Below, piece by piece: positions 2 through 46,310 of a stretch of DNA of 64,000 nt; positions within the stretch are counted from its first letter, which is position 1; each line of letters starts with the position of its first letter. The position numbers and the translations under genes are program-made. The stretch is from NCBI GenBank assembly GCA_964370475.1, contig CAYJJI010000001.1:50363-114362 (forward strand). The letters run 5' to 3'. This DNA comes from an uncultured Muribaculaceae bacterium (GTDB taxonomy: Bacteria > Bacillota_I > Bacilli_A > RF39 > UBA660). The notes beneath the pieces are model-generated. The model was not told the DNA's origin. It saw only the letters and a program-made list of their open reading frames with translations, and did not search any database.

Positions 2-445
2 ATTAAAGGCATAGACAGTTATTCTAAGTCCAAAAGTACTAGAATAACTACCTATGCTGCTAGATGCATAGAAAACGAAATATTAATGCATTTTCGTTCA
101 TCAAAAAAACACTTAAACAATATATCTTTAAACGACTATGTCGGTTACGACAAAGACGGAAATGAAGTAAGCCTAATTGATTTAGTTAAAGATGATGAAA
201 TAGACATAGCTACTAAAATCCATTTAGAAAATAACATTGATTTATTAACAAATTATTTAAAAGTATTAAATGAAAGAGAAAAAGAAATAATAACTAAAAG
301 ATATGGATTATTTAATACAGAATCAATGACACAAAAACAAATATCTAAAGAATTAAAAATAAGTAGAAGCTATGTATCAAGAATTGAAAAAAGAGCCTTA
401 ACAAGGCTCTTAAAAGAATTTATAAAAAGTAAAAACGAAATCTAA
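2..445 (+). CDS. Sporulation-type sigma factor (SigE/SigG/SigK family), 5'-truncated at the window edge
   Basis: Frame continues from position 2. TYAARCIENEILMHFR (region 2.4/3 hallmark of sporulation sigmas) and C-terminal ISRSYVSRIEKRALTRLLKEF (region 4.2 HTH). Confidence 0.7.
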   Translation: MKGIDSYSKSKSTRITTYAARCIENEILMHFRSSKKHLNNISLNDYVGYDKDGNEVSLIDLVKDDEIDIATKIHLENNIDLLTNYLKVLNEREKEIITKRYGLFNTESMTQKQISKELKISRSYVSRIEKRALTRLLKEFIKSKNEI

Positions 446-2071: not shown

Positions 2072-3850
2072 TTACTGCGCGAAGGAAAGCACCGAGCGTG
2101 CCGAAGAGAGGCCGTTAGGATATCCAGTGAGGCTGCTGAAATTCCAAACACCAGCACCACTGTCATCATAACAAGACCCACCTCGGTTGAACCAGGAATA
2201 AGTCGAGTTGACAAAGTTAGCTTTATCAGAGCTCCAGTTGGACATCGTAGTGCTATATGGATTTAACTCTACTGTTGCATCTCCATATATACCTCTTGTA
2301 TAATCACTAGAACTTGATCCATTAGCATATGAATCATAGTGCTTTGCATCTGGGGTAGTGGTGAAACCTGAAAGACTTGGATAGAAGTTTCCACTGCTAT
2401 CTTGCATATTCCCCATTACATATTCCCATCTTCCTCCTGCCATATCATATATACCTGTTATATTATGGGTTGTACTTGCTTTTATTCCATTTGCTGTTTC
2501 CCATCTATTACTTGCTGGACATATATTTATCCCTAATTCTGAGACATCTTGACTTGTATCAGATCCTCCACATCCAGTTACTATATCATATCCATTTGAA
2601 CTAGAATAATAATTATTGTTCTCTATTTTTACTGAACACGCTACATCATCTTCACATATTCCGTATTTAGATTGCGATAGATACGCTACCGCTCCCCACT
2701 CAGTATTTTTCATCATATGCATATCTGTGGTTGCATCCAATGAATATGCATTTTTAGTTCTTTGTATATTATAAAACATTGTACTTACATTTGCATTATG
2801 TGCTGAATTGACATTTGGTTTTATAATATAAGTAGTTTCCATGTCATTATTATTTTTTGGGTAATCTCCAGCATCTATAAAAATATTTTGCCATCCTAAC
2901 TCAAACTTCCCTACCCAAAGACCAGCTTGTTCTACACCACCAAAAGTAAATGCAGGATGAATTATTACATCATTATTTTCTATATCAGTATTAACTTTAC
3001 TAATTGGTACAAAGTTTATTTCTATTGATTCTTGTGCATTTACTATTGATGATTTTTTATATTCATATCTTGGAATCCATACATACATCTGCTCTATTGA
3101 TTCCATTGGTATTGTAGTTCCCGGATTTAGTGTTGTAAATGTTGGATCTACTATTACCGCATTCGCCCATTTTGATTCAGCATAACTATACCAAGCATCT
3201 TCATATATATCAGCAACAGTTACAACACCTGTATCTGCTATATTAACTGGTATCATTTTACTATCTAATACTGGATCACTTCCTGCTAAAACAGGATCAG
3301 TATAAGGAGGAAATGCTGCCTCAGCACTAACCGTAATCTTAGCTTGTATCTTTTTATTAGCAGCATTAGAAAGAGTTCCAGATCCATCTATCCACATTCT
3401 AAACATATGTTCATTAACTGCTCCTGGAGCTAAATTATAAGAAGATAAATTATAAGCAGTAGCTCCTTCAATAGTTGCTGTAGTAGTATTGCTTATAATA
3501 CTAGGAGTTAATCCATCAATAGAATATTTAATAAGATCATGACTTATATCAGTAATACTTAATACTTCTAAATTAACACTATATCTAGCATCAACAGTAC
3601 AAGTATTTTCTATTGAAAAGAAATAAGGAGCTTGAAACATTCCTTGATCATCAGTTAAAGGAAAAGAATTAGTTAAATTAATAGTACTACTACTATCCTC
3701 AGCAAAAACAATACTAAAACATCCCGAATCAACTAAATTTTCTCCAGATTGAGTTTCCCTTATCGACCATAATGCATACGAAAAACCAACAGCTATAGCT
3801 ACTGTTAATAATAAAGCAGTACCAATCAATATAATAAATTTAGGTTTCAT
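2072..3850 (-). CDS. Secreted modular protein, paralog 1: Sec signal peptide, unknown N-terminal module A, conserved linker B, C-terminal FGE/SUMF1-like domain
   Basis: Probable start at MKPKF (AGGAG 8 nt upstream; the ORF track has a longer alternative start). Hydrophobic segment ends ..SYA/LW. C-terminal motifs GIYDMAGGRWEYVMGN and WFNRGGSCYDDSGAGVW resemble FGE motifs GxYDMxGNVWEW and RVxRGGSW. Confidence 0.6.
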   Translation of the reverse strand: MKPKFIILIGTALLLTVAIAVGFSYALWSIRETQSGENLVDSGCFSIVFAEDSSSTINLTNSFPLTDDQGMFQAPYFFSIENTCTVDARYSVNLEVLSITDISHDLIKYSIDGLTPSIISNTTTATIEGATAYNLSSYNLAPGAVNEHMFRMWIDGSGTLSNAANKKIQAKITVSAEAAFPPYTDPVLAGSDPVLDSKMIPVNIADTGVVTVADIYEDAWYSYAESKWANAVIVDPTFTTLNPGTTIPMESIEQMYVWIPRYEYKKSSIVNAQESIEINFVPISKVNTDIENNDVIIHPAFTFGGVEQAGLWVGKFELGWQNIFIDAGDYPKNNNDMETTYIIKPNVNSAHNANVSTMFYNIQRTKNAYSLDATTDMHMMKNTEWGAVAYLSQSKYGICEDDVACSVKIENNNYYSSSNGYDIVTGCGGSDTSQDVSELGINICPASNRWETANGIKASTTHNITGIYDMAGGRWEYVMGNMQDSSGNFYPSLSGFTTTPDAKHYDSYANGSSSSDYTRGIYGDATVELNPYSTTMSNWSSDKANFVNSTYSWFNRGGSCYDDSGAGVWNFSSLTGYPNGLSSARSVLSFAQ

Positions 3851-3904
3851 TAAAACACTCCTATCATTAAAATAATTATATAACAAAATAAATATAAGTA
3901 CAAG

Positions 3905-8041: not shown

Positions 8042-9532
8042 TCAGTAAACAGCAGCTACAGATCTAGTAGCATACATTCCATAAGCTATCCCAAAATAAC
8101 TATTAAAAGCAAATACTCCCGCTTCAGTACCTAAATTAGCAGTAGAACCTCTATACATCCAATGATATTCGCCACCAACAAATCCAGCTGAATCACCATT
8201 CCAAGTTATTCTATTCGCTGGAGACATTTCAGTAGTAGCATCACCCGCAATACCTCTTGAATATTCATACATATTGGAAGAATAATTATAAGAATCATAA
8301 TACTTACTAGCAGGAACTGTAGGAAAAGCAGCATATGAATTAACAAAAGTTCCACTAGTACTCTTCATATTAGCCATTACTGCATCATATTTACCACCAG
8401 CCATATCATAAACTCCATAAACATTTCTAGTAGTAGAAGCCTTCGCCCCATTAGTAGTATTCCATCTATAAGTAGAAGGACAAATAGAAAGACCAGAAGC
8501 ATTAACTAAAACAGAAGTATCACTCCCTCCACATCCAGTAATAGTATCTAAATTAGTATTATGGTAACTATTATTCTCAACTTTTAAAGAACATGTCCCA
8601 TTGTCATTACAAACACCATACTTAGATTGAGATAAATACGCAATAGCACCCCATTCAATATTTTTAATCATATGAACATCTGTAGTTGAATCTAAACTAT
8701 AAAGTGTTTTAGCTTCTTGAACTTCCGTAAATAATCCATAATGATTTAAATTAACTACAGGAGCAACATTTGGAATATTCTTTGTATTTGCACCTTGTTC
8801 AAACTTACCTACCCAAAAACCAGATAACTTATCAGTTCCAAATGTAAAAGCAGAATGAGCAGTAGTATTTTTATCAACAAAATAAACATCAATAGCATTT
8901 GCAGAATTTACAATAGAACTAACATCATATCTAAATCTAGGAATCCATACATACATCTGTCCAACAGCACTCATAGGAATAACTGTTCCAGGAGGAGAAT
9001 TAAGATAAGATGTATTAGAAAGAACTATAGCATTCGCCCACTCACTATTCACATAATTGTACCATTCTTCTTCTAAATCAGCTACTTTGATCGTTCCATC
9101 ACTTTCTAAAACAATCGGTAACATTTTCGAATCTAAAAGTGGATCATTTCCATTCAATTCCGTTTCAATATATTTTTTAAAAAAATATATAGAACAATCA
9201 TCATTACCACTAAAAGACATATCTAAAGACCAATTTGATTGATTCCACACAGCTGTAGTAACTCCATCACAAACAAATCTATCAAAATGATAATTAGAAT
9301 TAGCAACAGGAAATTCAGTAGACTTAACACCACTAACATACACATTTAAATTAATAGGAGAATCAACTAACGAATTAATAATTACAGTATTATAATTAAC
9401 TTCAAAATACGCAAAAGAAATTCCCAAAATAGTAAATGCTATTAAAACAAGCAAAGAAAAAATTAAATGCTTTTTAGTATATTTCTTTTTATTATATTCC
9501 TTTGAAACATTAAATTGTTTCATATGAATCAC
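8042..9532 (-). CDS. Secreted modular protein, paralog 2: different N-terminal module, shared linker B, C-terminal FGE/SUMF1-like domain
   Basis: DPLLDSKMLPIV...WYNYVNSEWANAIV linker, then MYVWIPRFRYD..AFTFG..GFWVGKFE..EWGAIAYLSQSKYGVC..ITGCGGSDTS..GVYDMAGGKYDAVMANM..YRGS. Only 6 nt separate it from the pdp stop. Confidence 0.6.
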   Translation of the reverse strand: MIHMKQFNVSKEYNKKKYTKKHLIFSLLVLIAFTILGISFAYFEVNYNTVIINSLVDSPINLNVYVSGVKSTEFPVANSNYHFDRFVCDGVTTAVWNQSNWSLDMSFSGNDDCSIYFFKKYIETELNGNDPLLDSKMLPIVLESDGTIKVADLEEEWYNYVNSEWANAIVLSNTSYLNSPPGTVIPMSAVGQMYVWIPRFRYDVSSIVNSANAIDVYFVDKNTTAHSAFTFGTDKLSGFWVGKFEQGANTKNIPNVAPVVNLNHYGLFTEVQEAKTLYSLDSTTDVHMIKNIEWGAIAYLSQSKYGVCNDNGTCSLKVENNSYHNTNLDTITGCGGSDTSVLVNASGLSICPSTYRWNTTNGAKASTTRNVYGVYDMAGGKYDAVMANMKSTSGTFVNSYAAFPTVPASKYYDSYNYSSNMYEYSRGIAGDATTEMSPANRITWNGDSAGFVGGEYHWMYRGSTANLGTEAGVFAFNSYFGIAYGMYATRSVAAVY

Positions 9533-11955: not shown

Positions 11956-13491
11956 TCACTCAACTTCATAACACATACCCTCTGGACTATTTCCAAGACA
12001 TCTTTTAATTTCACATGTATGTTCACCAGTACAAACATCAAATCCCCAATCAGACCAAGGACCATTTTCTCTATAACCACTTCTTTCACAACTAAAAATA
12101 GGTTGATCTGCATTATTAATACAATAAGGATGACTTAAAACATAAAAGCTACCATTATACTGACATCTATTTCCATTATCACATACATATCCTGGTATAG
12201 GAGCTTTCGGATATACATGATGACCACTAATAAAAACAGAAGACCTAGTCCTATACTTAGTTACTATTGATAATTTAAAATAAACTTCAACAACAGTATT
12301 CTCTCTTGGCATAATAAAATTATCACTATTTAATAAAACTCCATTAACATACATTTTATCCACTTCATAATTTACATTCGGAACAAATGATAATGAAATA
12401 TTATTTCCAAATAAAGAAGAATCCTTACTTGAATATGCAACTCCACCATCACCATTAACAACACTAATGGTATATAAAGTTTTATCAACCTTACTTACAT
12501 TAAAAGGCATCTTAGCTTCATTACCTGCATTATCATAAACATATAAAACATAATCCCCATTATCTCTAGTAACAGTAATCAAACCATTATTAGAAAGAAA
12601 AACATTAATATCATTAATTCTTAATGAATTAATACCAGAGCCAACAACGCCATCATTATATTCGATATTTACTTCTCTATCCTTATTTATATACTCACTA
12701 TTATCAACATCTACTTCAATTACTGGAGGAATCTTATCAATCTTAAGTGTTCTAACTTTAGTTTTAAATCCTTCATTAGTTAAAATAGAACCATATATTG
12801 AAATAATAGAATTATCGGCACTAACTAATAACATATTAGAACAATCATCAACATTATTAATATCTACATTAGAAACATCACAAAAATTACTATCACTATA
12901 CTTTGAAGACTTATTTACTCCACCTCCAGTAAATACAATATCAGATCCTTCCTTAACGCTAAATCCATCATCAACATCTAAAACTAATAAAACGTCAGTA
13001 TTAATCCAAACAAATTCAGATAAACCACTAATTAATTCTAATTTATCACCAATAACCCCGTTAACTACCTTATAACCATCAAATTTCAACCCATCTTCAT
13101 CTTCAAGTTCATATTTAACACTACAATCATCAATTACTTCATCAGAAAAAGTAGCAACAATTTGATTCTTAGAAAAAGATATATTTATTGCATTACAACT
13201 CATATCACTACTATCAACAGGATTAATAACTTTATCACTATTAACATCATCAGAACTAATATATCCATCATATACAAGCTGTAAAACAGGTATCGTTATC
13301 GGAGCAGACAAGTTAAGTTCATCTCCCCATTTTTCAGAAGCTATTTCCAAACTTTGTATTTTATTATCTAAAGCCTTTTGCTTTCCTGAATTAGTAATAT
13401 TTATATAACTTGGAATAGCTATCAATAACAAAATACCAAGTATTACTATAGCTACTAATATTTCAACAATTGTAAATCCCTTATATTTCAT
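11956..13491 (-). CDS. Large type IV pilin-like protein (prepilin-type N-terminal cleavage/methylation domain plus ~470-aa C-terminal region with a Cys-rich end)
   Basis: MKYKG/FTIVEILVAIVILGILLLIAIPS is a classic class III signal (G at -1, E at +5). 511 aa. The last ~90 residues contain 10 Cys. Confidence 0.7.
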   Translation of the reverse strand: MKYKGFTIVEILVAIVILGILLLIAIPSYINITNSGKQKALDNKIQSLEIASEKWGDELNLSAPITIPVLQLVYDGYISSDDVNSDKVINPVDSSDMSCNAINISFSKNQIVATFSDEVIDDCSVKYELEDEDGLKFDGYKVVNGVIGDKLELISGLSEFVWINTDVLLVLDVDDGFSVKEGSDIVFTGGGVNKSSKYSDSNFCDVSNVDINNVDDCSNMLLVSADNSIISIYGSILTNEGFKTKVRTLKIDKIPPVIEVDVDNSEYINKDREVNIEYNDGVVGSGINSLRINDINVFLSNNGLITVTRDNGDYVLYVYDNAGNEAKMPFNVSKVDKTLYTISVVNGDGGVAYSSKDSSLFGNNISLSFVPNVNYEVDKMYVNGVLLNSDNFIMPRENTVVEVYFKLSIVTKYRTRSSVFISGHHVYPKAPIPGYVCDNGNRCQYNGSFYVLSHPYCINNADQPIFSCERSGYRENGPWSDWGFDVCTGEHTCEIKRCLGNSPEGMCYEVE

Positions 13492-19967: not shown

Positions 19968-20723
19968 TCAATAAATAAACAAGTTATTTAAAACTTCCAT
20001 TATTTGATTTCCAAACATAAATGTAATATAAACAGCAGTAATTAAAAACGGTCCAAAAGGTACTTCAGACTCTAACTTAGTATGAATGAAATAAATAGCA
20101 AACGGTAAAGTCAATAAAGAACCAATTATAAGTGCCACAAAAGATAACTGAAATCCTAGTACAACCCCAAATAAGAAAGCTAACTTAACATCTCCAAAAC
20201 CTAAACTCTCTCTTTTAAATACTCTATCGCCAACAAACTTAATTAAATACATAACAAGAAATAATACCACTCCAACTAAAATACTAAATAAAAATTCTTC
20301 AACACCACTAAGGACTAACTTAGTAATTAAAATAGTAACAATCCCTAAAACTAAAGGAATATCCAATATATACAAATATTTGAAATCACTTACATAAGTA
20401 ATTACTAGTATAGAACTGATAACTAAATATATAATCAACCCTTCTAAGGAATTACTCATATAATAAGATAAACCAAATAAAAATCCAGTTAATAATTCAA
20501 TTAAAACATAACTAATAGACAATTTATACCCACACTTACTACATTTTCCTCTTAAAAAAACATAAGAAAAAACTGGTATTAGTTCATACCATGAAAGAGG
20601 CTTATCACACCCCTCACAATGACTACCAGGTTTAACAATTGATTCTCCTCTAGATAATCTATCACCAACTACGTGAAAGAAAGATCCAAAAAACAACCCA
20701 AAAATTCCAAATAAATAAACCAT
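19968..20723 (-). CDS. pilD: Prepilin peptidase (A24 family)
   Basis: 251 aa polytopic membrane protein. N-terminal Cys tetrad (CEGCDKPL...CSKCGYKL) and C-terminal peptidase domain. 9 nt downstream of the pilC-like gene. Confidence 0.7.
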   Translation of the reverse strand: MVYLFGIFGLFFGSFFHVVGDRLSRGESIVKPGSHCEGCDKPLSWYELIPVFSYVFLRGKCSKCGYKLSISYVLIELLTGFLFGLSYYMSNSLEGLIIYLVISSILVITYVSDFKYLYILDIPLVLGIVTILITKLVLSGVEEFLFSILVGVVLFLVMYLIKFVGDRVFKRESLGFGDVKLAFLFGVVLGFQLSFVALIIGSLLTLPFAIYFIHTKLESEVPFGPFLITAVYITFMFGNQIMEVLNNLFIY

Positions 20724-20732
20724 ATTATCCCC

Positions 20733-22262
20733 CTACATATTAATTGTACCATACATTCCATACATTGGCATTACAACCGCCATCAAAATAGCTCCAACAA
20801 CTACTGCCAAACCAGCAATCATAACCGGTTCTATAATAGCTTTAAAACTAGTAACTATCGACTTATGTTGTATTTGAAAATGCTCACTAACTTTTTCCAT
20901 CATTGAAGCAAGTTCTCCAGTCGATTCCCCAGTAACAATCATGAAATAAGCTGCACTAGGAATAGCCCAGTGATCTTTAAAAGTTTCAGATATCTTACCA
21001 CCAGTAGATATATTATTAATAGTTTCAAACATAATTTCTTTATAAACTTCATTAGAAGTTATCCTACTTAAAATATCCATACTATCAGTAATATAAACAC
21101 TATTCTTTAACAATGACGAAAACGTCTTAGTAAAAATAGTTATCTCATTAAATATTATTAAATCCTTAATTACAGGAATCTTCATTACCATTATTTGCAT
21201 TGCTTTTCTAAAAGCTTTAACTTTCTTATAAGAAAACACAAATACTAAAACAACTAAAATAGTAACAGCTATATATATTAAGTAATTAGCTTGCAAATTT
21301 TCCGATAAATTTAATACTAACAATGTAATCCCAGTAACAGGAGCACCCATTGATTCATAAATACCTTCAAACTCTGGCATTATAAATAACATTATAAATA
21401 TAACAATACCTACAGCAAATACACTTATTATCGCCGGATAAGTCATAGCACTAATCATATCTTTTTTAGTTTTATCAATCTCAGAATAATAATTAGCCAT
21501 ATCATCTAAAGTAGATTGTAAATCTCCAGTAGCTTCAGCTGCTTTTAACATATTAATTAATAAACTAGGAAACATTCCACCTTGCTTAGTTAAAGCATTA
21601 GAAAAACTCTCTCCCATAGTAAGTTCATAAACGATAGCATTAAAAATACTTTTTCTCGCAGTATCTTTACCAGTTTGTTGAGCTAAAATTCTCATAGAGT
21701 CAGTTAATGGTATACCACTTCTTACATAAGTAGATAATTGTGTTAACCAAAAAATTAAATCTTTACTTTTCATCTTACGAGGAAATAAACCACTTTCGCC
21801 ATAAACAAAATTAATCCAATCACTAGTTTCAATACTAAAAACTTCATAACCTTCATTAACTAAAAAAGTATTAACATCTAACTTAGACATCCCAGTAAAA
21901 TTATCAGTAACAAGTTTACCTTTATAATCAAGTGCAGTATATCTAAATATTGTTGGTTTAGTTAATCTCTTAGCATCTTCACCAGTTAACTCAGCATTAA
22001 GCTTAGCTTTCTTCTCTTCTAACTTAGCAAGTACTCTAGGACTAATTTTAGTCTTACGATCTACCACAGCTTCTTTTTTTTCAGTTTTTATTATGTTCTT
22101 AGTACCTTTATAAGTTTTATCAACTGCACTAGAAGAAACATAATATAATTTAGCTAAAGGAGAAAATAAAACTTTTAATCCTAGAAAAGCATATCTAAAT
22201 ATATCAAAAAAACTTAATATAAAATTAATTGGCATAAACAATACATTACTCTTCTTAGCCAT
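20733..22262 (-). CDS. pilC: Type IV pilus / type II secretion platform protein (GspF/PilC family) with ~120-aa N-terminal extension
   Basis: Two T2SSF-like repeats. Characteristic YTALDYKGKLVTDNFTGMSKLDVNTFLVNEGYEVFSIE N-domain. 509 aa. Confidence 0.7.
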   Translation of the reverse strand: MAKKSNVLFMPINFILSFFDIFRYAFLGLKVLFSPLAKLYYVSSSAVDKTYKGTKNIIKTEKKEAVVDRKTKISPRVLAKLEEKKAKLNAELTGEDAKRLTKPTIFRYTALDYKGKLVTDNFTGMSKLDVNTFLVNEGYEVFSIETSDWINFVYGESGLFPRKMKSKDLIFWLTQLSTYVRSGIPLTDSMRILAQQTGKDTARKSIFNAIVYELTMGESFSNALTKQGGMFPSLLINMLKAAEATGDLQSTLDDMANYYSEIDKTKKDMISAMTYPAIISVFAVGIVIFIMLFIMPEFEGIYESMGAPVTGITLLVLNLSENLQANYLIYIAVTILVVLVFVFSYKKVKAFRKAMQIMVMKIPVIKDLIIFNEITIFTKTFSSLLKNSVYITDSMDILSRITSNEVYKEIMFETINNISTGGKISETFKDHWAIPSAAYFMIVTGESTGELASMMEKVSEHFQIQHKSIVTSFKAIIEPVMIAGLAVVVGAILMAVVMPMYGMYGTINM

Positions 22263-22349: not shown

Positions 22350-24041
22350 TTATAAAATAATACTCATAACAGATCTAGTAGAAGTATATAAAGCAGCAGC
22401 TCCATCACCTACATAAAATGCCCAAATACCAGCATAAATATCATTACCAGCTCTTCCTCCTCTTACAAACCAAGGAGCCATTTTATATATAAAATAAGCA
22501 TAATCAGTATTCCAATTTGACATATTTACTGAAGTTGCATCAAGTTCTTTTATCCCATCTCCACTAATTGCCCTATGATAGTCAAGTTCATAAGTACCAT
22601 AAGTATATGAATCATAATACTTAGAAGCAGGAGCTACAGAAAAACCAGAACTCCAAGTATTGAAGTTTCCAAACTCATTTACCATATTAGCCATTACATA
22701 TTCCCATTTACCACCGGCCATATCATAAACACCAGTAACATTAGCTGTAGTACTAGCTTTAACTCCATTTGCTGTTGACCATCTATTTTCTAACGGACAT
22801 ATTTCTATACCACTTAAAGCAACACCAGTAGAAGTATCAACACCACCACAACCAGTAACAGATGCATACGACGTAGAATTGAAATAACTATTATTTTCTA
22901 CCTTTCCACCACAAGTTCCATCAGCACTACAAATACCATATTTTGATTGTGATAAATATGCTACTGCTCCCCATTCCATATTTTTTATAATGTGAACATC
23001 TGATTCTTCATCCAAACCATAAGTATCCATAGTATTATTAACATTATCATATAATACAGAAATAGATGCATTACTAAAAGAATTAATATTAGGTACTATT
23101 TTATTACCAACACCTTGTTCAAACTTACCTATCCAAAAACCAGGTAACTCCTCTTCTCCAAACGTAAAAGCAGGATGAGCAGAAGCAGAAATATCAACAA
23201 AAGTTAAATCAACAGCAGTATCAGCATCAAATACAGACTCCTCAACGTAAGAATATCTAGGAATCCATACATACATTTGTTCTATTTTATCAAGAGGTAT
23301 TTCCACTCCAATATATAAATTAGTATATGTCGGATCAACTATAACAGCATTCGCCCATTCACTATTTTCATAAGAATACCATTTTTTTTCTACATCAGCA
23401 ACAATAACACTACCATCATCATTAATAATTACAGGTAACATCTTAGAATCTAATATCGGATCAGCACCAGCTAAAATTTCATCATCATAAGGTAAAAATG
23501 TCGAATTAGCAACTACTGAAATTTTAGCATCAACAACCTTGTTAGCAGAATTACTCATAGTTGCAGAAGAATCAATCCACATTCTAAATTCATGCGTAAC
23601 TGACTCATTAGGTTCCAAAATATAATCATCAAAGCTATAAGCTTTAGCAGAAGAATTTATGGCATCCACTTCCTCATTACTACTAACTATAACCGGATCA
23701 TCATAATCCAGTGCTCCTTTAATTAAACTATGACTTAAAGTAGTTGTATTTAAAACTTCTAAATTAACTAAATAAGATGTGTTATTAGAACAAGTATTAG
23801 TAACAGTAAACACATAAGGAGTAGATCTCATTCCATCAATATCACTAATAGGATAAGCATTACTCAAATTTATCAGAGATTCAGAATCTTCTGAATAATT
23901 AATCGACAAACAACCGCTATTAACAATACCATCACCAGATTGTTGATTATCACTTACCCACAAAGCAAATGAAAAACTTATAGTCAAGACGCATACTAAC
24001 AGTACACCAATTACAAACAAAAATATCATTTTAACATTCAT
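22350..24041 (-). CDS. Secreted modular protein, paralog 3: signal peptide, module A, linker B, FGE/SUMF1-like domain
   Basis: Module A (SGCLSINYSEDSESLINLSNAYPISD...TNTCSNNTSYLVNLEVL...EFRMWIDSSATMSNSANK), linker (DPILDSKMLPVI..WYSYENSEWANAVIVD), FGE-like motifs (GVYDMAGGKWEYVMANM, PWFVRGG). AGGAT ribosome-binding site 8 nt upstream of the ATG. Confidence 0.6.
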   Translation of the reverse strand: MNVKMIFLFVIGVLLVCVLTISFSFALWVSDNQQSGDGIVNSGCLSINYSEDSESLINLSNAYPISDIDGMRSTPYVFTVTNTCSNNTSYLVNLEVLNTTTLSHSLIKGALDYDDPVIVSSNEEVDAINSSAKAYSFDDYILEPNESVTHEFRMWIDSSATMSNSANKVVDAKISVVANSTFLPYDDEILAGADPILDSKMLPVIINDDGSVIVADVEKKWYSYENSEWANAVIVDPTYTNLYIGVEIPLDKIEQMYVWIPRYSYVEESVFDADTAVDLTFVDISASAHPAFTFGEEELPGFWIGKFEQGVGNKIVPNINSFSNASISVLYDNVNNTMDTYGLDEESDVHIIKNMEWGAVAYLSQSKYGICSADGTCGGKVENNSYFNSTSYASVTGCGGVDTSTGVALSGIEICPLENRWSTANGVKASTTANVTGVYDMAGGKWEYVMANMVNEFGNFNTWSSGFSVAPASKYYDSYTYGTYELDYHRAISGDGIKELDATSVNMSNWNTDYAYFIYKMAPWFVRGGRAGNDIYAGIWAFYVGDGAAALYTSTRSVMSIIL

Positions 24042-26060: not shown

Positions 26061-26061
26061 C

Positions 26062-27777: not shown

Positions 27778-27854
27778 AAAATACCCTCTAACTATATATA
27801 TTATAGACAAAAGTCCAATTTCCTTTTTTTTCACGCAAAAAAATGCAAAAAAGT

Positions 27855-29174: not shown

Positions 29175-29211
29175 CTATATATATTAATTATTAATTAAAA
29201 ATTTCCTCCAA

Positions 29212-29238
29212 TAAAAAACTTGTTCTAAAGAACAAGTT
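29212..29238 (-). terminator. Rho-independent terminator of paralog 4 (acttgttct-aa-agaacaagt, T-run on minus strand)
   Basis: 9-bp perfect stem. The A6 on the plus side is the T-run for the minus-strand transcript. Confidence 0.55.
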
Positions 29239-29346
29239 AATCATTATATCTTAGATATTTATAACTCCAAAAAAGCATATTTATCTATAAAACTATAAGC
29301 CATACTTTTTATAACAAACACTATTTATCATTAATAAAGCATATAA

Positions 29347-30738
29347 TTATCCACCAATATTCCCAAAAGCCCATTCATCTAAAAATAAATCATCAAACTC
29401 TAAAGCATATATAGCAAAATAATCATCTACTGAAACAATTTTATAACTTACTCCTTTTATAACTATACTATTATAACCACTATTACTTTCAAATGCCCTA
29501 CTTCCAATATAAGCAACACTATCTGGAATAACCAATTCAGTTAATTCATTATGTCCAAAAGCCAACTCACCTATAGTTTTTAAATTCGCACCTAAAGTTA
29601 ATTGAGTTAAAGAATTAGACTCAAAAGCACCATAACCAATCTCTATAACCCTATCAGGAATAACTAGTTCTGTTAAGTGATTATAAGCAAAAGCACTATT
29701 ACCAATCTCTATAACCCTATCAGGAATAACTAATTCAGTTAATTGATTATAAGCAAAAGCATAATCTCCTATAGTAGTTACATTCTCCCCTAAAGTTAAT
29801 TGAGTTATAAGATTAGCACCAAAAGCCGCATCATTTATTTCTACAACACTATTAGGTATAACCACTTCTGTTAATTTATTCCCAAGAAATGCACCAAAAA
29901 CAGCTCCACTATCCACATCATAATAACCGTCAATTACTTGCAATGTTTCAGGTAATATAGCACTAGTAATATCAAATCCAATCATATTAGTTGTATCTTT
30001 AACAAAAGCTTCTGGTCCTAAAACAGTTACTGGTTTACCATTTATTTCACAAGGAATAACTACATCTTTAGGTCCAGCATCAGTATATCCATCTATAGTT
30101 ACAGAATTACTAGTTTCAGTATAAGTAAAATAACTATCGTCCGTCGGCGTTAAACCTCTAGCTTCATAATCACTTAAACAAATTTCTAAATCACTAAGAA
30201 CTGGAACAGCTACAATCACTATCTTAGAATTAACAATCTTATTTTGAGAATTCTCTAAAGTAGCAGAATAATCTACCCACATTCTAAAATCATGACTTCT
30301 ACTCTCACCAGCATTTAATTTAAATGTATCTAAAAGATACGAAGTAGAATTTGCAATAGTAGATTCAACTACTGATTTATTATTTAAAGTCTCTGGATTA
30401 TTAGTATCTAATACACCACTAATTAATGAATGTCCTAAAGTAGTACTATCCAAAACTTCAATATTCACCTGGTAACTAGCAGCTAAATCACAAGTATTAG
30501 ATATAGTAAAAGAAAACGGATCAGTTAAAATCCCCTCACTATCAGGTATTGGAAAAGTATTTGTAATATTTATATGTTCAGTATCTTCAGTAAAAGTAAT
30601 ATCAAAACACCCTGTACTAACAAGGTTGTTATCAGTTTGTGTTGCTGTAAGCATCCAAACTGCAAAAGTAACACCACTAATTATTAAAGCTACTAACGTA
30701 ATACCCATACCAATCATTAATAATAATCTCTTATTCAT
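29347..30738 (-). CDS. Secreted modular protein, paralog 4: signal peptide, module A, then BspA-type leucine-rich repeats (no FGE domain)
   Basis: Module A (STGCFDITFTEDTEHINITNTFPIPD...SNTCDLAASYQVNIEVL...DFRMWVDYSATLENSQNK). C-terminal repeats of the form ELVIPDRVIEIGNSAFAYNHLT. GAGGG ribosome-binding site. Confidence 0.55.
   Translation of the reverse strand: MNKRLLLMIGMGITLVALIISGVTFAVWMLTATQTDNNLVSTGCFDITFTEDTEHINITNTFPIPDSEGILTDPFSFTISNTCDLAASYQVNIEVLDSTTLGHSLISGVLDTNNPETLNNKSVVESTIANSTSYLLDTFKLNAGESRSHDFRMWVDYSATLENSQNKIVNSKIVIVAVPVLSDLEICLSDYEARGLTPTDDSYFTYTETSNSVTIDGYTDAGPKDVVIPCEINGKPVTVLGPEAFVKDTTNMIGFDITSAILPETLQVIDGYYDVDSGAVFGAFLGNKLTEVVIPNSVVEINDAAFGANLITQLTLGENVTTIGDYAFAYNQLTELVIPDRVIEIGNSAFAYNHLTELVIPDRVIEIGYGAFESNSLTQLTLGANLKTIGELAFGHNELTELVIPDSVAYIGSRAFESNSGYNSIVIKGVSYKIVSVDDYFAIYALEFDDLFLDEWAFGNIGG
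29636..29767. repeat. Two tandem 66-bp direct repeats (~88% identical) encoding consecutive 22-aa LRR units; further partial copies nearby (29591-29632, 29789-29830)
   Basis: ccaatctctataaccctatcaggaataact(a/g)(a/g)ttc(a/t)gtta(a/g)(t/g)tgattataagcaaaagc occurs twice in tandem. Confidence 0.7.
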
Positions 30739-30789
30739 AATCTATTCCCTCTATCATTAAAATGATACCATTAATAGGAGAAAAAAACA

Positions 30790-30817
30790 AGAAAAAAGAA
30801 TAGACATAATCTATTCT
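30790..30817 (-). terminator. Rho-independent terminator of alaS (agaataga-cataa-tctattct, overlapping the stop codon)
   Basis: 8-bp stem followed by a T-run on the minus strand. Confidence 0.45.
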
Positions 30818-32556
30818 AATACAGCTTTAATTCTTCTAACACCAGCTGAAGATGCTTCTTCTTTTTTTATTTTAAAAATACCCAAATCACCAATAGACTC
30901 AACATGAGGTCCACCGCATAATTCCTTAGATATATCACCTATATAATAAACATTTACTACATCTGGATATCTATCTATAAACATACATTCAGCTCCAGTA
31001 GATAAAGCTTCTTCTTTAGACATTTCTTTTTTAGTAACTTTCAATCCTTCACTAATCCATTTATTAACTAATTCTTCTACTTTAGATTTTTCTTCATCAG
31101 TTAACTTATGATCACATGCAAAGTCAAAACGAAGTCTCTCACTAGTGATATTACTTCCCTTTTGATGTACACTAGGATCTACTACTACCTTTAAAGCAGC
31201 ATTAAGTAAGTGAGTAGCAGTATGATATTTAACTTCCATATCACCATTACCTGCTAAACCACCCTTAAACTTCTCCTTAGCTCCAGCTCTTGATAATTCT
31301 TGATGAGCTCTAAACTTATCATTAAATCCCTTAATATCTACAGATAAATTATATTCACTAGCTACTTCTTCAGTTAACTCTATCGGAAAACCATAAGTAT
31401 CATATAACTTAAAAGCTAAAGTAGCATCTATTTCATTAATATTATTAATATTTTTAGATAACTCTCTAAGTCCCTTTTCTAAAGTTCTATTAAATTTAAC
31501 TTTTTCATTAGACAAAACTTCATACACAACGTTTTCATTAATATCTAATTGAACATAATACTTCTTATAATTATTAACTATAATCTTAGCTAATCTAATA
31601 TCAAAATCACTATTAATATCAATATTTAACTTCTTAGCATGTCTAATCATTCTTCTAATTAATCTTCTTAGTATATATCCTTGATCAGTATTAGAAGGTT
31701 TAATCATAGCACTATCACTACTAATAAATACAGCAGTTCTTATATGATCAGCAATAATTCTCATACTACTTTCATTACCTTCATAACTAAATCCAGAAAT
31801 ATTTTCTATTTCATTAATAACATCACTCCATATAGAAGTTTTATAATTATCATTAACACCTTCTATAAAAGAAACAATTCTCTCATAACCCATCCCAGTA
31901 TCTACATTTTTACTAGGTAATTCAGTTATCGATCCATCAGGATGTTTAAAATATTCCATAAACACATTATTCCATACTTCAACCCAATTAGAATCCTCTG
32001 GATCAAAAACAGTCGGAACATCATCGCCACGATATACAAATATCTCAGTATCCGATCCACAAGGACCAGACTCTCCAGCTATCCAAAAATTATCTTCAAC
32101 TCCTAAAAAAACTATTCTATCATCACTAATACCTAAAGACTTCCATACATTAGCAGAAACTAAATCACGAGGTATATCTTCATTACCTTCAAAACAACTT
32201 ACAGCTATTTTAGAAACAGGAATATTTAAGACATCGGTTAAAAACTCAAAACTATATTTAATAGATTCTTCTTTAAAATAATCCCCTAAACTCCAATTAC
32301 CTAACATCTCAAAAAACGTATGATGCGTAGCATCACCAATAACATCTAAATCATTAGTTCTAATACACATTTGATAATCTACAAGCCTTTTACCATAAGG
32401 ATGTTCCTCACCCATTAAAAATGGTATTAAAGGCTGCATACCAGCTGTATTAAATAATACAGATGGATCATTCAAAGGTACAACAGGTGCACTAGGTATT
32501 TGCTTATGTCCTTTACTAACAAAAAAATCAATATACATATCTTTTATATTTTTCAT
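30811..32556 (-). CDS. alaS: Alanyl-tRNA synthetase, unusually short (catalytic plus editing domains, no C-Ala domain)
   Basis: FNTAGMQPL, KRLVDYQMCIRTNDLDVIGDATHHTFFEMLGNWSLGDYFK, editing-domain HTATHLL...CGGPHV. True start MKNIKD with GGAGG 5 nt upstream; the ORF track uses an upstream TTG. Confidence 0.8.
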   Translation of the reverse strand: MKNIKDMYIDFFVSKGHKQIPSAPVVPLNDPSVLFNTAGMQPLIPFLMGEEHPYGKRLVDYQMCIRTNDLDVIGDATHHTFFEMLGNWSLGDYFKEESIKYSFEFLTDVLNIPVSKIAVSCFEGNEDIPRDLVSANVWKSLGISDDRIVFLGVEDNFWIAGESGPCGSDTEIFVYRGDDVPTVFDPEDSNWVEVWNNVFMEYFKHPDGSITELPSKNVDTGMGYERIVSFIEGVNDNYKTSIWSDVINEIENISGFSYEGNESSMRIIADHIRTAVFISSDSAMIKPSNTDQGYILRRLIRRMIRHAKKLNIDINSDFDIRLAKIIVNNYKKYYVQLDINENVVYEVLSNEKVKFNRTLEKGLRELSKNINNINEIDATLAFKLYDTYGFPIELTEEVASEYNLSVDIKGFNDKFRAHQELSRAGAKEKFKGGLAGNGDMEVKYHTATHLLNAALKVVVDPSVHQKGSNITSERLRFDFACDHKLTDEEKSKVEELVNKWISEGLKVTKKEMSKEEALSTGAECMFIDRYPDVVNVYYIGDISKELCGGPHVESIGDLGIFKIKKEEASSAGVRRIKAVLE

Positions 32557-32790
32557 AATTTCCTCCAACAAAAAAAGAATAACACCAAGGAGTCTTACGA
32601 CGGTACCATCCTTTACTTAACTTAATTTAATATAACGGTTTAAACCGACTAATCTCCAAAGATAGCTATTTCTTTATTTAAATTATTTCTTCTCACCTAA
32701 CAGAAACTCTCTTGAAATTCAAATAAATACTTGGTCTTTTTCAACAATTAATAAACAAATTATATCATAAACATAACAATTAATCAAATA
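32557..32790 (-). promoter_or_regulatory. Candidate T-box leader upstream of alaS
   Basis: Minus strand contains AAAGGATGGTACCGTCG (T-box consensus AANNNGGGTGGNACCGCG) about 40 nt upstream of the ribosome-binding site. AGAGAG (GA motif) and GCT-containing loop candidates lie further upstream. No convincing terminator helix was found. Confidence 0.45.
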
Positions 32791-32792
32791 AA

Positions 32793-42489: not shown

Positions 42490-42517
42490 AAAAAAACAAT
42501 AGTATCAACTATTGTTA
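42490..42517 (-). terminator. Rho-independent terminator after tadC-like gene (aacaatagt-atca-actattgtt plus T-run on minus strand)
   Basis: 9-bp perfect stem overlapping the stop codon. Confidence 0.5.
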
Positions 42518-43204
42518 ATTTAAAAATTCTATAATTCTTGGAGCTAATATAATTAACATAACAACTGGTAGAAATAATAATAAACTAGCAATAAATACAT
42601 ATACAGGAACTCTATTAATCTTCTCTTTTAATAGAATAAAATTAAACTGTCTCATATCATCTACTTGATAATCCAAAGAAGTTATTATCTCACTCCCCAA
42701 TTTATTAGCTTGAATAAATAACTGAATAATACTTCTTATTTTAATAGAAGGTATTCTCTCAGCTAAAGAATTTAAAGACTCCTTTAAATTCTTACCACTC
42801 TTCATATCTTCTAAAGCCTTAAAAAATTCATCACTAAGTTCACCATCGATATTCTCACAACTAACTAACAAACTCTCACTAATCGACTTACCACTCTTTA
42901 AAGCTAAAGAAACCCCTTCAAAATAATATATAGCATTCTCTTCCAAAGTAACTATTCTAGATTTAATCTTATTATCAAATAAAATAACTCCCATACTTAT
43001 ATATATTACTACTACTATTATCGGAGCAAATATATATCCATAATCTCCTAAAAAACTAGCACCAATTAATATAATCATACATAGTATTAGTCTATTAAAC
43101 AAAAACTTATATACATTAGTATCATTACCACTTAATAAAGCCCTATTATTATAATAATCTATCGTCTTCTTAGAATATATTAACTTAACTAAACCTCTAA
43201 TCAT
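42515..43204 (-). CDS. Tad/Flp-type pilus assembly membrane protein (TadC-like, T2SSF domain)
   Basis: 229 aa. TM, then cytoplasmic helical T2SSF-like domain, then C-terminal TMs. Paired with the TadB-like gene. Confidence 0.5.
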   Translation of the reverse strand: MIRGLVKLIYSKKTIDYYNNRALLSGNDTNVYKFLFNRLILCMIILIGASFLGDYGYIFAPIIVVVIYISMGVILFDNKIKSRIVTLEENAIYYFEGVSLALKSGKSISESLLVSCENIDGELSDEFFKALEDMKSGKNLKESLNSLAERIPSIKIRSIIQLFIQANKLGSEIITSLDYQVDDMRQFNFILLKEKINRVPVYVFIASLLLFLPVVMLIILAPRIIEFLN

Positions 43205-44195
43205 TAAAAACCCTCCTTATTATCTTATCAATAACAAAGATATACGAAAAATAAAGAATTAATCCTATTACTACAATAATAATTCCAAGAACACTATATA
43301 TAGGATCAAAATAAGTACTATCAATATAATATATTCCTAAACATAGTACTGGAGGAATAAATAAAAGAATTTGATAAATCAACAAAGAAGTACTACTCAT
43401 TAACTTAAGTTCATTTCTTAATTTTCTCTTAGTATTAAAATTATTCATTAATCCATCAAACATATCAGAAATATTTCCTCCAGTTTTATGAACTAAAACC
43501 AAAGTCATTGCTATATGTTTAACTTCCTCAAGTCTAACCCTATCATAAAATCTATCAAACGCAACATCAATCTCTAATCCCTTATTTAAATCACTATTAA
43601 CTTTAGCAAATTCACCCTTTAAAGGACCATTTAACTCCTTAGAAACTAACTCTATAGCTTTATATATATTTAAATTAGCTTTAAAAGCATTATTCATAAC
43701 TACCAAAGCATTAAATAAATCATTATTTAACTCTTCCTTACGCTTTCTATATACACTAACAGTAACATAATCAGGACTAATATAACCTAGTACTAATATA
43801 ATAATAAAAGCCAAATAACTAAAATCATAATATCCATTTACAGCATATAAAGTATATAAACCATTTAATACTACAACTACTAAAAACTTAACTAAAACAA
43901 ATTTTACTAAATCATCATCACTTTCAATATACAACTTATATCTAGAAGCTATTCCATTAATAATAAAACTCTTCTTAAATAACTTAACAAAAAAATCACT
44001 AATTTTATTTAAAAATCTAACTATCCTATCCTGCAAAGAATTTGCTCCTACATAACTATTTCTAACAGAATACTTAGAAACCCTTTTAGCAACCTTTAAA
44101 TTCTTAAAAGATACAATAATCCATACTAAAAAAATAATTCCCAGAATCATTAAACCAATTTTTCCAAAACTTATTATTTCAGCAAATTCCACCAT
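43197..44195 (-). CDS. Tad/Flp-type pilus assembly membrane protein (TadB-like, T2SSF domain)
   Basis: 332 aa. Same architecture. 8-nt overlap with the ATPase gene. Confidence 0.5.
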   Translation of the reverse strand: MVEFAEIISFGKIGLMILGIIFLVWIIVSFKNLKVAKRVSKYSVRNSYVGANSLQDRIVRFLNKISDFFVKLFKKSFIINGIASRYKLYIESDDDLVKFVLVKFLVVVVLNGLYTLYAVNGYYDFSYLAFIIILVLGYISPDYVTVSVYRKRKEELNNDLFNALVVMNNAFKANLNIYKAIELVSKELNGPLKGEFAKVNSDLNKGLEIDVAFDRFYDRVRLEEVKHIAMTLVLVHKTGGNISDMFDGLMNNFNTKRKLRNELKLMSSTSLLIYQILLFIPPVLCLGIYYIDSTYFDPIYSVLGIIIVVIGLILYFSYIFVIDKIIRRVFND

Positions 44196-44203
44196 AAACC
44201 TCC

Positions 44204-45520
44204 TTAAGAATTAAAAATATCATCTATACTACTAATCCCTTTATTCTTTATCTTTTTATAAGATAAAGAATTAACATTATTAAGATTATAACTTCCATTA
44301 ACTAATCCACCACTAGTTAAACCATCTTGTACAAAAGAAAATACTTCATTTAATACAATATTACCTTCTCTAAGACCTATCACTTCACTAATACTAGTTA
44401 TTTTTCTTCTGCCATCACTTAGTCTTCCAAGTTGAATAACTATATCTATAGCTCCAGTAATATATTCTCTAACACTATTAATAGGTATATCTAAATTACT
44501 CATTAAAACCATTGTTTCTAGTCTATTTAAAGCCTCTACAGGAGAATTAGCATGTAACGTAGACATAGATCCCTCATGGCCTGTATTCATTGCTTGAAGC
44601 ATATCAAATGCTTCTCCACCACGAACTTCACCAACTATTATTCTATCAGGTCTCATTCTAAGAGCATTTAAAACTAAATCTCTAATCGAAACATCTCCCT
44701 TAGCACCATAATTAACCTTTCTAGTTTCTAAAGTAATTACATGTTCTTGTTTCAATTTTAATTCAGCAGCATCCTCTATAGTAACAATTCTTTCATTTTC
44801 ATTAATAAAAGAACTTAATACATTTAATAATGATGTTTTACCACTACTAGATCCTCCACTTACAACAATATTTAACTTAGCTATAACACAAGCTTCCAAA
44901 AATCTAGCCATATAAGGAGTTATACTTCCAGTACGAATCATATCATCAATATTATCCATCTCACCACTAAACTTACGTATCGTAATTATCGGACTTTTAG
45001 ATAAAGGAGGAATAATAGCGTTAAACCTAGACCCATCACTAAGCCTAGCATCAACCATTGGATTACTTGCATCTATAACCCTACCAACACTTCCAATTAA
45101 TCTTTCAATAGTACTCATTATATGATCATCATTAATAAAAGAAACAGAATTATCCTTAATTAATTGACCTTCAATTTCTATATAAATATCACTAGGTCCA
45201 TTAACCATTATTTCCGTGACATCTTTATCTTTTAATAAAGATGTCAAAGGACCATATCCATTTAATTCATCTTCAATTAAATTATATAAATGATTTCTTT
45301 GTAATACTGATAAATCAATACCATCAACAAATCTATCAATCTCTTCATTAATAAAAGAACTAAGTGATTGATCACTTCTTTTTTCCTTATCAATTAAAGA
45401 ACTAATAATCTTTTCTCTAAGTGAATCCAATAACTTCTTATCTTTAAAAGCTTCGTAATCTTTAACATCATCAATTAAAGATTTACTCTTAAATTCAAAA
45501 GCATCTAATAACTTAGTCAT
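44204..45520 (-). CDS. CpaF/TadA-family type II/IV secretion ATPase
   Basis: Walker A VSGGSSSGKTSLLN, Asp box, Walker B IIVGEVRGGEA, His box MNTGHEGSMSTLHAN. Confidence 0.8.
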   Translation of the reverse strand: MTKLLDAFEFKSKSLIDDVKDYEAFKDKKLLDSLREKIISSLIDKEKRSDQSLSSFINEEIDRFVDGIDLSVLQRNHLYNLIEDELNGYGPLTSLLKDKDVTEIMVNGPSDIYIEIEGQLIKDNSVSFINDDHIMSTIERLIGSVGRVIDASNPMVDARLSDGSRFNAIIPPLSKSPIITIRKFSGEMDNIDDMIRTGSITPYMARFLEACVIAKLNIVVSGGSSSGKTSLLNVLSSFINENERIVTIEDAAELKLKQEHVITLETRKVNYGAKGDVSIRDLVLNALRMRPDRIIVGEVRGGEAFDMLQAMNTGHEGSMSTLHANSPVEALNRLETMVLMSNLDIPINSVREYITGAIDIVIQLGRLSDGRRKITSISEVIGLREGNIVLNEVFSFVQDGLTSGGLVNGSYNLNNVNSLSYKKIKNKGISSIDDIFNS

Positions 45521-46310
45521 GATTAATCACCTCACCTTTAAATAAATCAGCAATAATCATCATCATCGTTGAATAATCCTTAGTAAATAATTTTGAATAT
45601 TTCTTCTCTAGCGTTGGAATCTTACCATTCATCAAATAGTTATCTATATTCTTTAAAAAAGCTTCTTTAGATAAAGTATAATCAATATTACTCTTAATTA
45701 TCGATTTAATATTGAACACTGAAAAATACTCTTTAAAAGGGTCTCTACTATTATTAAGTAATACCTTGTATTTAGTAAATTCGGCATTATTAAAAACATT
45801 AACTAAAGATCTCATATTCTTTAAATCAATCAAATCATTAGTAACTAAAAACAACACCATATCAGCCAACGACATAATCAACAAATTATGTTCATTAATA
45901 ATATGATTAGTATCTATAATAACAAAATCATAATAATTTGTTGATTTTTCAATTACTTGTTCTACAAATTTAGAATCAATCTTATTAGCTTGTCTAGGAT
46001 CTTTAGGACAAGCCAATATATCAATATTTTTACTATATTTCACAGTATAATCATCCAATTTTTTATAAGCACCACTATTGATATCAGTATATAAAGTAAA
46101 TAAATTAGTTTGATAATTAACATTTAAAGAAGCAGCTACTCCACCACTATATAAATCAAAATCAACTAATAATACTTTTTTGTCAAGTGCCTCAGCACAA
46201 CCAGCTATATTAAGAGCAGTAATCGTCTTACCAACTCCACCTTTAGCACTGCTAATACACAAAGATTTACCCTTCTTTAACGTCATAAAACCATTCCCGT
46301 CTTCATCCAA
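45513..46310 (-). CDS. ParA/MinD-family ATPase (CpaE/TadZ-like, no receiver domain)
   Basis: Deviant Walker A SAKGGVGKT. 265 aa. Overlaps the tadA start. Confidence 0.55.
   Translation of the reverse strand: MDEDGNGFMTLKKGKSLCISSAKGGVGKTITALNIAGCAEALDKKVLLVDFDLYSGGVAASLNVNYQTNLFTLYTDINSGAYKKLDDYTVKYSKNIDILACPKDPRQANKIDSKFVEQVIEKSTNYYDFVIIDTNHIINEHNLLIMSLADMVLFLVTNDLIDLKNMRSLVNVFNNAEFTKYKVLLNNSRDPFKEYFSVFNIKSIIKSNIDYTLSKEAFLKNIDNYLMNGKIPTLEKKYSKLFTKDYSTMMMIIADLFKGEVINHD

Follow-up and report, generated by a model that had tools for sequence, protein, structure and literature searches.

The locus and its parts

The 64-kb stretch of DNA analysed here (positions 50,363 to 114,362 of contig CAYJJI010000001.1, GenBank assembly GCA_964370475.1; hereafter the window, with its first nucleotide as position 1) carries on its minus strand a gene for a 463-amino-acid (aa) protein, paralog 4. 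The protein joins an N-terminal module also found in other products of the window (module A) to a C-terminal array of leucine-rich repeats (LRRs). Paralog 4 is quite probably an exported, cell-surface LRR protein of the BspA type, belonging to an uncultured low-GC gut bacterium of the Bacillota. As an LRR surface protein it is ordinary, the only unusual part being the uncharacterised N-terminal module that it has in common with its paralogs. The open reading frame (ORF) is uninterrupted and initiates at an ATG codon at position 30738, with a GAGGG ribosome-binding site upstream. An identical protein is found in an NCBI-derived collection (P0001), where it is the sole member of its 90% cluster. 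The parts of the gene and of its 3' flank are as follows (AF2, AlphaFold2; pLDDT, predicted local distance difference test; TRF, Tandem Repeats Finder).

29347..30738, minus strand: complete gene of paralog 4, 463 aa (ORF list and sequence).
30655..30738, minus strand: N-terminal export/anchor segment, aa 1-28, with a basic n-region and a hydrophobic helix of about 20 aa (AF2 helix 3-28, family alignment).
30205..30654, minus strand: module A beta-sandwich, aa 29-178.
30133..30204, minus strand: linker helix, aa 179-202 (LSDLEICLSDYEARGLTPTDD; AF2 helix 183-194; same linker in P0122, P0125, P0128, P0129 and P0132).
29455..30132, minus strand: BspA-type LRR_5 solenoid, aa 203-428, made of an N-terminal cap, two irregular turns and six regular 22-aa units (Pfam, NCBIfam, AF2, Foldseek).
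29488..29883, minus strand: the six regular 66-bp (22-aa) LRR units, aa 286-417, in the order A-B-A-A-B-A (unit table, identity matrix, TRF).
29620..29751, minus strand: LRR units 3 and 4, a recently duplicated or converted pair (identity matrix, codon test).
29347..29454, minus strand: C-terminal cap or tail, aa 429-463, and stop codon (AF2 pLDDT; comparison with P0122, P0125 and P0132).
29217..29238, minus strand: terminator-like hairpin followed by a T-run, 3' of the paralog 4 stop codon and before the next gene (consensus scan only).

Paralog 4 carries a predicted BspA-type solenoid

The presence of BspA-type LRRs in the C-terminal half of paralog 4, proposed in an initial sequence-only reading, was borne out by the Pfam model LRR_5 (PF13306), which matches the protein with an E-value of 6.4e-43 and a score of 146.1 bits (gathering cutoff, 27.7 bits) over two stretches, the best of which spans residues 283-396. 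The two peptides quoted in that reading correspond to residues 330-351 and 352-373. Structure prediction likewise returned a confident solenoid of the LRR_5 type, so that one outcome named in advance as refuting the reading, a region not predicted to adopt this fold, did not occur. In an AF2 model built with ten homologs (mean pLDDT 81.8), residues 200 to approximately 428 wind into a solenoid of about nine turns in which a short strand recurs every 22 residues, and pLDDT exceeds 90 over most of the interval from 200 to 420. When the model was compared to the PDB with Foldseek, the top matches were solved BspA-type LRR_5 proteins (4gt6, 4fs7, 4fd0, 4cp6, which is PcpA, and 4h09), all with a probability of 1.0. 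The NCBIfam model NF047961, which describes the HupY/LrrG adhesin of Streptococcus agalactiae, matches residues 217-420 in part (E-value 8.7e-29). The likeness is local to the LRRs; since the score (100 bits) lies far below the equivalog cutoff of 1250 and only the LRR portion of the 978-position model is matched, paralog 4 is not an ortholog of this adhesin.

LRR proteins of the BspA type that are encoded by internally repeated DNA occur commonly in bacteria of the gut and mouth, and shuffling of domains is to be expected among surface proteins. Paralog 4 resembles the known representatives (BspA of Tannerella forsythia, LrrA of Treponema denticola, pneumococcal PcpA with structure 4cp6, and the gut-commensal proteins 4fs7, 4gt6, 4fd0 and 4h09) in having 22-residue units with the pattern L-T-x-[VL]-x-I-P-x-x-V-x-x-I-G-x-x-A-F, an export signal, a role presumed to lie in surface binding, and DNA units of 66 bp that are subject to duplication and deletion. 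It differs from them in its short array (about 9 turns) and in its carrier, which is module A rather than a lipoprotein signal, a choline-binding domain, an LPXTG anchor or a type IX secretion system (T9SS) C-terminal domain. By this reading, module A would export paralog 4 and hold it at, or away from, the cell surface, and the solenoid would act as the binding surface, most likely for surface macromolecules of the host or of other microbes, as in other BspA-type proteins.

A number of points weigh against the identification of paralog 4 as a surface LRR protein with a history of unit duplication. The Foldseek TM-scores to the LRR_5 structures are low (0.19-0.35), because the two-domain query model and the curvature of the solenoid align poorly. 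The last 35 residues are poorly modelled, with pLDDT below 50 for residues 430-463; an ending of the type W..G...(I/V)N(Y/F)(L/I)G recurs in the subfamily members compared (P0122, P0125 and P0132). Surface location and signal-peptide cleavage are features that we infer, and binding of a ligand by the LRR domain would be expected by analogy with the family. The codon signature of the most recent repeat duplication (see below) is only marginal. Lastly, the contig seems to come from a metagenome assembly, in which the number of near-identical units could, in principle, be wrong through mis-assembly.

History of the 66-bp repeats

The two 66-bp segments that had been described as about 88% identical (29636-29701 and 29702-29767) match at 59 of 66 nucleotides (89%), and the second related pair noticed at the same time (29591-29632 and 29789-29830) matches at 34 of 42 (81%). 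Analysis with TRF recovered the 66-bp period at 29622-29761 (2.1 copies, 93% matches, score 245), nested within an array of 198-bp period at 29515-29874 (1.8 copies, 79%, score 485). Apart from these two arrays, no TRF match in the 64-kb window scores 100 or more. The longer period has its counterpart in the succession of LRR unit types. Four of the six regular units contain an LTE[LV]VIP strand (type A) and two the sequence LTQLTLG (type B); the two A-B-A triplets are identical at 147 of 198 nucleotides. The 198-bp period is thus an old duplication of an A-B-A triplet.

Units 3 and 4, which meet at the junction of the two triplets, form the most similar pair, with 59 of 66 nucleotides and 18 of 22 amino acids in common and a longest exact run of 32 nucleotides. 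They differ by 2 synonymous and 4 non-synonymous codon changes, too few sites for the ratio of non-synonymous to synonymous rates (dN/dS) to be interpreted. The other 14 pairs of units have 33 to 51 of 66 nucleotides in common (50-77%). The use of the same codon at identical residues of each pair was compared to the expectation from codon usage in the window. Units 3 and 4 use the same codon at 16 of 18 identical residues, versus 11.0 expected (P = 0.007 uncorrected; about 0.1 when corrected for 15 pairs). The remaining pairs lie at or near expectation, the largest excess being that of units 2 and 5 (11 observed, 8.0 expected). Units 3 and 4 represent one real, recent duplication or conversion, while the DNA likeness among the other units reflects the LRR consensus and a biased codon table. 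The 66-bp tandem repeat is the footprint of the latest whole-unit event, superimposed on the older triplet duplication.

Module A and the linker

The N-terminal segment of paralog 4, a hydrophobic segment of the Sec type, ends with the motif G-V-T-F-A-V-W (aa 22-28; 30655..30675). In an alignment of 27 family members, the sequence G-x-[ST]-[YF]-A-x-W is near-invariant and lies at the end of the hydrophobic helix. It has small residues at -3 and -1, as in a signal-peptidase site, and aromatic residues at P2 and P2'; we infer from this pattern a putative cleavage site after Ala26. AF2 folds residues 33-178 as a beta-sandwich, within which C44, P63, F77, N81 and C83 are invariant in the same alignment, while the near-invariant W28, Q34 and N38 fall in a segment that AF2 leaves disordered.

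The linker that follows is specific to the LRR-bearing subfamily, with the signature E-x-C-x-x-D-Y-x-x-R-G-x-T-P-T ... V-I-P-C-E. A second conserved Cys pair, present only in this subfamily (P0122, P0128 and P0132), consists of Cys187 in the linker helix (E-I-C-L-S-D-Y, 30139-30180) and Cys230 in the first LRR turn (V-I-P-C-E, 30049-30051). The pairing suggests a disulfide that may fix the linker to the solenoid in the surface protein of an anaerobe.

Neither Pfam-A nor NCBIfam holds a model for module A, and a profile of the module found no match among PDB sequences even at an E-value of 10. In Foldseek comparisons to the PDB, the module retrieved only generic sandwiches with TM-scores below 0.4. 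The profile, built from four sequences, was used to search 1.84 billion proteins, with clusters taken as 50% identity representatives. A total of 5013 clusters matched at an E-value of 1e-3 or better and 582 at 1e-30 or better. In all matches listed, module A starts within the first 20 residues, the exception being P0222, where it spans residues 92-276. Matches in genomes come from uncultured gut Bacilli, "Tenericutes" and "Mycoplasma sp." metagenome-assembled genomes (MAGs), with several loci per genome and genes often in tandem. They sit among housekeeping genes, and all-against-all clustering of the ORFs of 31 such loci and of the window yielded no recurrent partner gene. Three of the contigs (L001, L002 and L012) were deposited as "uncultured Muribaculaceae" MAGs and carry module A genes up to 51% identical to those of the window; otherwise like the Bacilli loci, these contigs are short and probably mis-binned. 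The occurrences of the module in the window and outside it, and the related genes, are as follows.

30205-30738, module A of paralog 4; 23500-24041, module A of paralog 3; 3300-3832, module A of paralog 1; further loci, L001-L031.
22350..24041, minus strand: paralog 3, module A and a weakly FGE-like C-terminal module (ORF list, BLASTP).
2072..3886, minus strand: paralog 1, module A and a C-terminal module as in paralog 3 (BLASTP).
8042..9532, minus strand: paralog 2, the C-terminal module of paralogs 1 and 3 behind a shorter, different N-terminus (GISFAYFE...).

Exchange of C-terminal domains on module A

The N-terminal homology of paralog 4 to paralogs 1 and 3, also claimed beforehand, was recovered by BLASTP over residues 1-178 at 38-40% identity. 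The alignment with paralog 3 (71/178 identities, E-value 4e-45) ends at residue 177; that with paralog 1 has 74/194 identities and an E-value of 7e-41. The companion claim, that the LRRs stand in place of an FGE-like domain, survives in part: a swap on a common N-terminal module did take place, but the FGE identity of the domain found in the other paralogs rests on sub-threshold matches. This C-terminal module, which also occurs in proteins from several other MAGs, matches no Pfam model at threshold. FGE-sulfatase (PF03781) is matched by two of its seven members, with a best E-value of 0.023, below threshold, and the sole match of a sequence profile search of the PDB is 5vf4_A, an uncharacterised protein (E-value 0.007). 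The label "FGE-like" may be retained as a reasonable lead that is not established.

Exchange of the C-terminal part is a general property of the module A family, whose partners include FGE-like, LRR_5, DUF285, PKD plus beta-helix-like repeats, DUF6273-like and other domains, or none. The module A sequences nearest that of paralog 4 (44-54% identity) come from proteins of both the LRR and the FGE type. When a neighbour-joining tree of the module was drawn (no bootstrap), the two types were interleaved and the LRR fusions P0088 and P0002 fell far from the paralog 4 clade; hence LRR_5 joined module A more than once. Other members of the family (L009 and L028) carry, instead of LRR_5, arrays of DUF285 (PF03382), the LRR-like repeat of Mycoplasma/Mollicutes surface families. 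They follow the same logic of a variable repeat adhesin on a common leader, in related Bacillota with a reduced wall or a small genome. The repeat family is a different one, and paralog 4 has no DUF285. Paralog 4 itself belongs to a conserved subfamily combining module A, the linker and LRRs, in which the array grows and shrinks by whole 22-aa units.

Is module A related to TasA?

It is conceivable, if unlikely, that module A is a distant relative of the TasA/camelysin-type subunits. A SipW-like (ER-type; ER, endoplasmic reticulum) signal peptidase would cut after Ala26, and the N-terminus freed in this way (VWMLTATQTDNN...) would act as a donor strand, linking module A domains into a fibre. 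In that fibre, paralog 4 would be a subunit or the tip and would display the LRR adhesin, and the short stand-alone module A proteins would be the bulk subunits. What draws attention to this scheme is the site itself: the order S/T, aromatic, Ala, any residue, aromatic, with cleavage after Ala, matches T-W-A|A-F of TasA, including the aromatic residue at P2'. In TasA, whose site reads GGTWA|AF, processing requires the ER-type peptidase SipW (PMC10269814). The mature N-terminus of TasA was checked against PDB entry 8aur. Alignment of module A with hhalign to TasA or to a profile of 32 TasA family members runs in the same register through the signal peptide and the first strands, with probabilities of 32% and 27.5%, respectively, that are low and partly driven by the signal peptide. 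One of the 27 members matches TIGR04088 cognate_SipW (E-value 0.006) and one matches TasA (E-value 0.036), both below threshold; paralog 4 itself matches neither, and no match to Pfam Peptidase_M73 (PF12389) or to NCBIfam models reaches threshold.

In TasA, residues 28-38 are the donor strand by which the fibre is polymerised (PMC9674648). If module A were related to TasA, residues 27 to about 40 could act in this way, and W28, Q34 and N38, near-invariant in a segment that AF2 leaves disordered, would be in keeping with such a role. Both families appear to have a beta-sandwich or jellyroll of similar size and have, at the end of the signal peptide, an aromatic P2, Ala at P1 and an aromatic P2' (TasA/CalY/camelysin: PF12389, TIGR04088); the sequence and structure signals are weak and agree in register. 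However, the module A profile has no match among PDB sequences and Foldseek retrieves generic sandwiches only. Moreover, the invariant Cys pair of module A is absent from the TasA family, as are its long C-terminal fusions. Bulk subunits of the kind supposed are available, since 24 of 150 representatives are stand-alone proteins of at most 260 aa and three short genes lie in tandem in locus L021. As for the peptidase, tasA lies in the tapA-sipW-tasA operon, whereas neither sipW nor tapA is found near module A, and a motif-level search of the window and the 31 module A loci returned no ORF of at least 100 aa with an SGSMxP-type motif. The signal end of paralog 2, GISFAYFE, comes even closer to the CalY/TasA-type ending TFAYFSD.

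Extended to the whole family, the idea would make module A a large, uncurated superfamily of SipW-processed, TasA-like subunits, in which short members build the shaft and long ones sit along it or at its tip, bearing exchangeable binding domains (LRR_5, FGE-like lectin fold, DUF285 and PKD). This, too, we regard as rather doubtful. If true, it would reveal a hitherto undescribed, modular system of adhesive fibres in Gram-positive bacteria, which in some lineages might be coupled to the Tad machinery.

Gain and loss of LRR units

The sequence-only reading had further held that the repeats of paralog 4 permit changes in copy number. The searches made found no close relative in which such changes might be seen. 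A full-length search returned only paralog 4 itself above 50% identity, an N-terminal word-based search returned one relative (44% identity) and a scan of metagenome contigs a single one (31%); a contig lookup with the exact protein found no match. The best relative in GTDB species genomes is 51% identical in module A. At greater distance, whole-unit changes become apparent. Proteins P0014 and P0017, about 88% identical, differ by a 44-aa gap within the LRR array, and P0002 and P0019, also about 88% identical, differ by a 22-aa gap. The linker-sharing LRR subfamily (P0128, P0132, P0122, P0125 and P0129) ranges in size from 399 to 645 aa. One of its members, P0122 (562 aa), combines module A and this linker with an array of about 13 LRR units; its identity to paralog 4 is 42%, and it is probably a further (fifth) paralog from the same genome, encoded outside the window. 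One homolog has 12.5 tandem 66-bp copies at 81%; in another, P0088, no tandem DNA repeat was detectable. The whole-unit gaps and the size range of the subfamily indicate that the arrays evolve by gain and loss of whole units, and comparison of these sequences suggests that LRR units come and go over evolutionary time.

A faster process, in which paralog 4 would be a contingency locus where frequent slipped-strand or RecA-mediated gain and loss of units within a population generates size or antigenic variants of the adhesin, appears improbable. It would be in line with the 89-93% identity of the adjacent units, the whole-unit indels between closely related LRR_5 proteins and the variable unit number across the linker subfamily, and such changes would always stay in frame, because the unit is 66 bp long. 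Against these stand the low number of copies, only about two, which mismatch at 7 positions and agree without interruption over at most 32 nucleotides, and the 50-77% identity of the other units, which is the level expected from codon bias. The homolog P0088 has no detectable tandem DNA repeat, and the searches retrieved no close relative. A pair of imperfect copies offers little scope for rapid slippage but permits rare unequal recombination; nothing shows a fast, reversible slipped-strand switch at paralog 4. Hence the claim about copy number holds as regards rare unequal recombination, which is possible, but the structure (2.1 copies, 89-93% identity, 32-nucleotide exact run) is not that of a slipped-strand contingency locus.

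Pilus genes in and near the window

A third alternative, very improbable in our estimation, is that a type IV or Tad filament machine handles module A proteins as pilin-like substrates of a non-canonical kind, paralog 4 being a minor pilin with an LRR adhesin at its tip. In favour of the idea, cpaF and tadB of locus L016 are separated by a module A gene (6001-6582) that encodes a stand-alone protein of 193 aa and whose start overlaps the stop of cpaF. The tad operon of this locus (2940-8323) comprises flp, two tadE-like genes, tadZ, cpaF, the module A gene, tadB and tadC, and the locus is syntenic with the Tad/ruvAB region of the window (38-46 kb), where no module A gene occupies that spot. 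The presence of a Tad locus in the window at 42515..46310 is compatible with the idea. More broadly delimited, the Tad-type locus covers 39989-46310 on the minus strand and contains tadZ-like, cpaF, tadB and tadC genes followed by an ORF of 113 aa. Two more ORFs (325 and 344 aa) come after these genes, and both have what looks like a similar arrangement of coiled coil and transmembrane segments. Upstream of the locus, unlike in L016, neither flp nor tadE was recognised; a regular-expression search for Flp-type pilin ORFs in the window returned none, with a pattern too narrow for a real test. A possible precedent is offered by the "pilin-like" proteins of unknown homology, with one transmembrane helix, in the Tad cluster of the uncultured gut clade TANB77 (PMC11680825), to which module A proteins might be analogous.

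Two further associations could be cited in support of a pilin-like role. Paralog 3 lies directly upstream (87 bp) of pilC-like (20733..22262) and prepilin peptidase (19968..20723) genes on the same strand; no pilB ATPase gene adjoins this group. P0014 and P0017 join the N-terminus of a true type IV pilin to the same cassette of LRR_5 and tail. These fusions, like P0032, a "leucine-rich repeat protein" of Candidatus Altimarinota, carry the LRR_5 cassette behind a membrane-inserted N-terminal module. They differ from paralog 4 in having a canonical GFTLVE prepilin signal (PF07963) and in their C-terminal cap. A common C-terminal tail, KI[VI]NK.GK.F.W ... F[IV]TGT, was observed in the pilin-LRR_5 fusions (GFTLVELL) and in the module A-LRR proteins P0088, P0097 and P0002; the LRR cassette is thus mobile between N-terminal carriers of two different types.

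However, a class III signal is lacking in paralog 4 (neither G|F-x-x-x-E nor Flp G|xxxxEY is present, and N_methyl and TIGR02532 are not matched), and the conserved motif of module A follows the hydrophobic helix instead of preceding it. Only one of the 31 loci adjoins Tad genes, none (0/31) is next to pilC or pilD homologs, and paralog 4 itself lies between alaS-like and adhesin genes. The window does encode a true pilin (11956..13491) that, unlike paralog 4, matches both N_methyl and TIGR02532. This 511-aa protein, specified by the minus strand, combines a prepilin N-terminus (KGFTIVEI) with an InlB B-repeat-like domain and is a large pilin-like adhesin.

It is scarcely credible that the repeat is an assembly artefact or the gene a decaying pseudogene, as the probable metagenomic assembly of the contig and the poorly modelled C-terminal 35 aa might be taken to suggest, given an uninterrupted ORF with a ribosome-binding site and a terminator-like hairpin, an end-to-end match to subfamily members that includes the C-terminal cap, and two units that differ at 7 positions, so that short reads can tell them apart.

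Surroundings of the gene

Paralog 4 is flanked by alaS-like and adhesin genes. On account of the terminator-like hairpin at 29217..29238, it looks like a transcription unit of its own. The gene directly downstream (27855-29174, minus strand) encodes a protein with a thioester domain (TED, E-value 5.7e-5) and a SpaA-like prealbumin fold, ending in a hydrophobic stretch and a basic tail with no clear LPXTG motif; it is a probable second adhesin. The GC content of paralog 4 (0.29-0.32) is the same as that of the neighbouring genes, and horizontal transfer of the gene was rejected on this ground. A phage origin was rejected as well, megablast having given no match.

Almost all long ORFs up to about 61 kb (86-60952) are on the minus strand, apart from a 119-aa ORF (86..445) and a few short, nested antisense ORFs. 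GC skew is strongly negative (-0.2 to -0.67) over the stretch profiled (26000-33800). Strand bias and skew fit a single replichore with strong co-orientation of genes. The sole Rfam match in the 64-kb window is an L21 leader (49362-49430, minus strand, 45.7 bits) upstream of rplU, consistent with an origin in the Bacillota. The window lacks tRNA and rRNA genes.

Significance

In identifying paralog 4 as a probable BspA-type surface protein, the analysis draws attention to what carries the LRR domain. Module A appears as a common chassis for many binding domains, represented in thousands of clusters from uncultured, small-genome gut Bacillota. Knowledge of its fate, be it cleavage and release, anchoring in the membrane or polymerisation in the manner of TasA, would explain how these poorly known bacteria assemble their surface and adhere in the gut.

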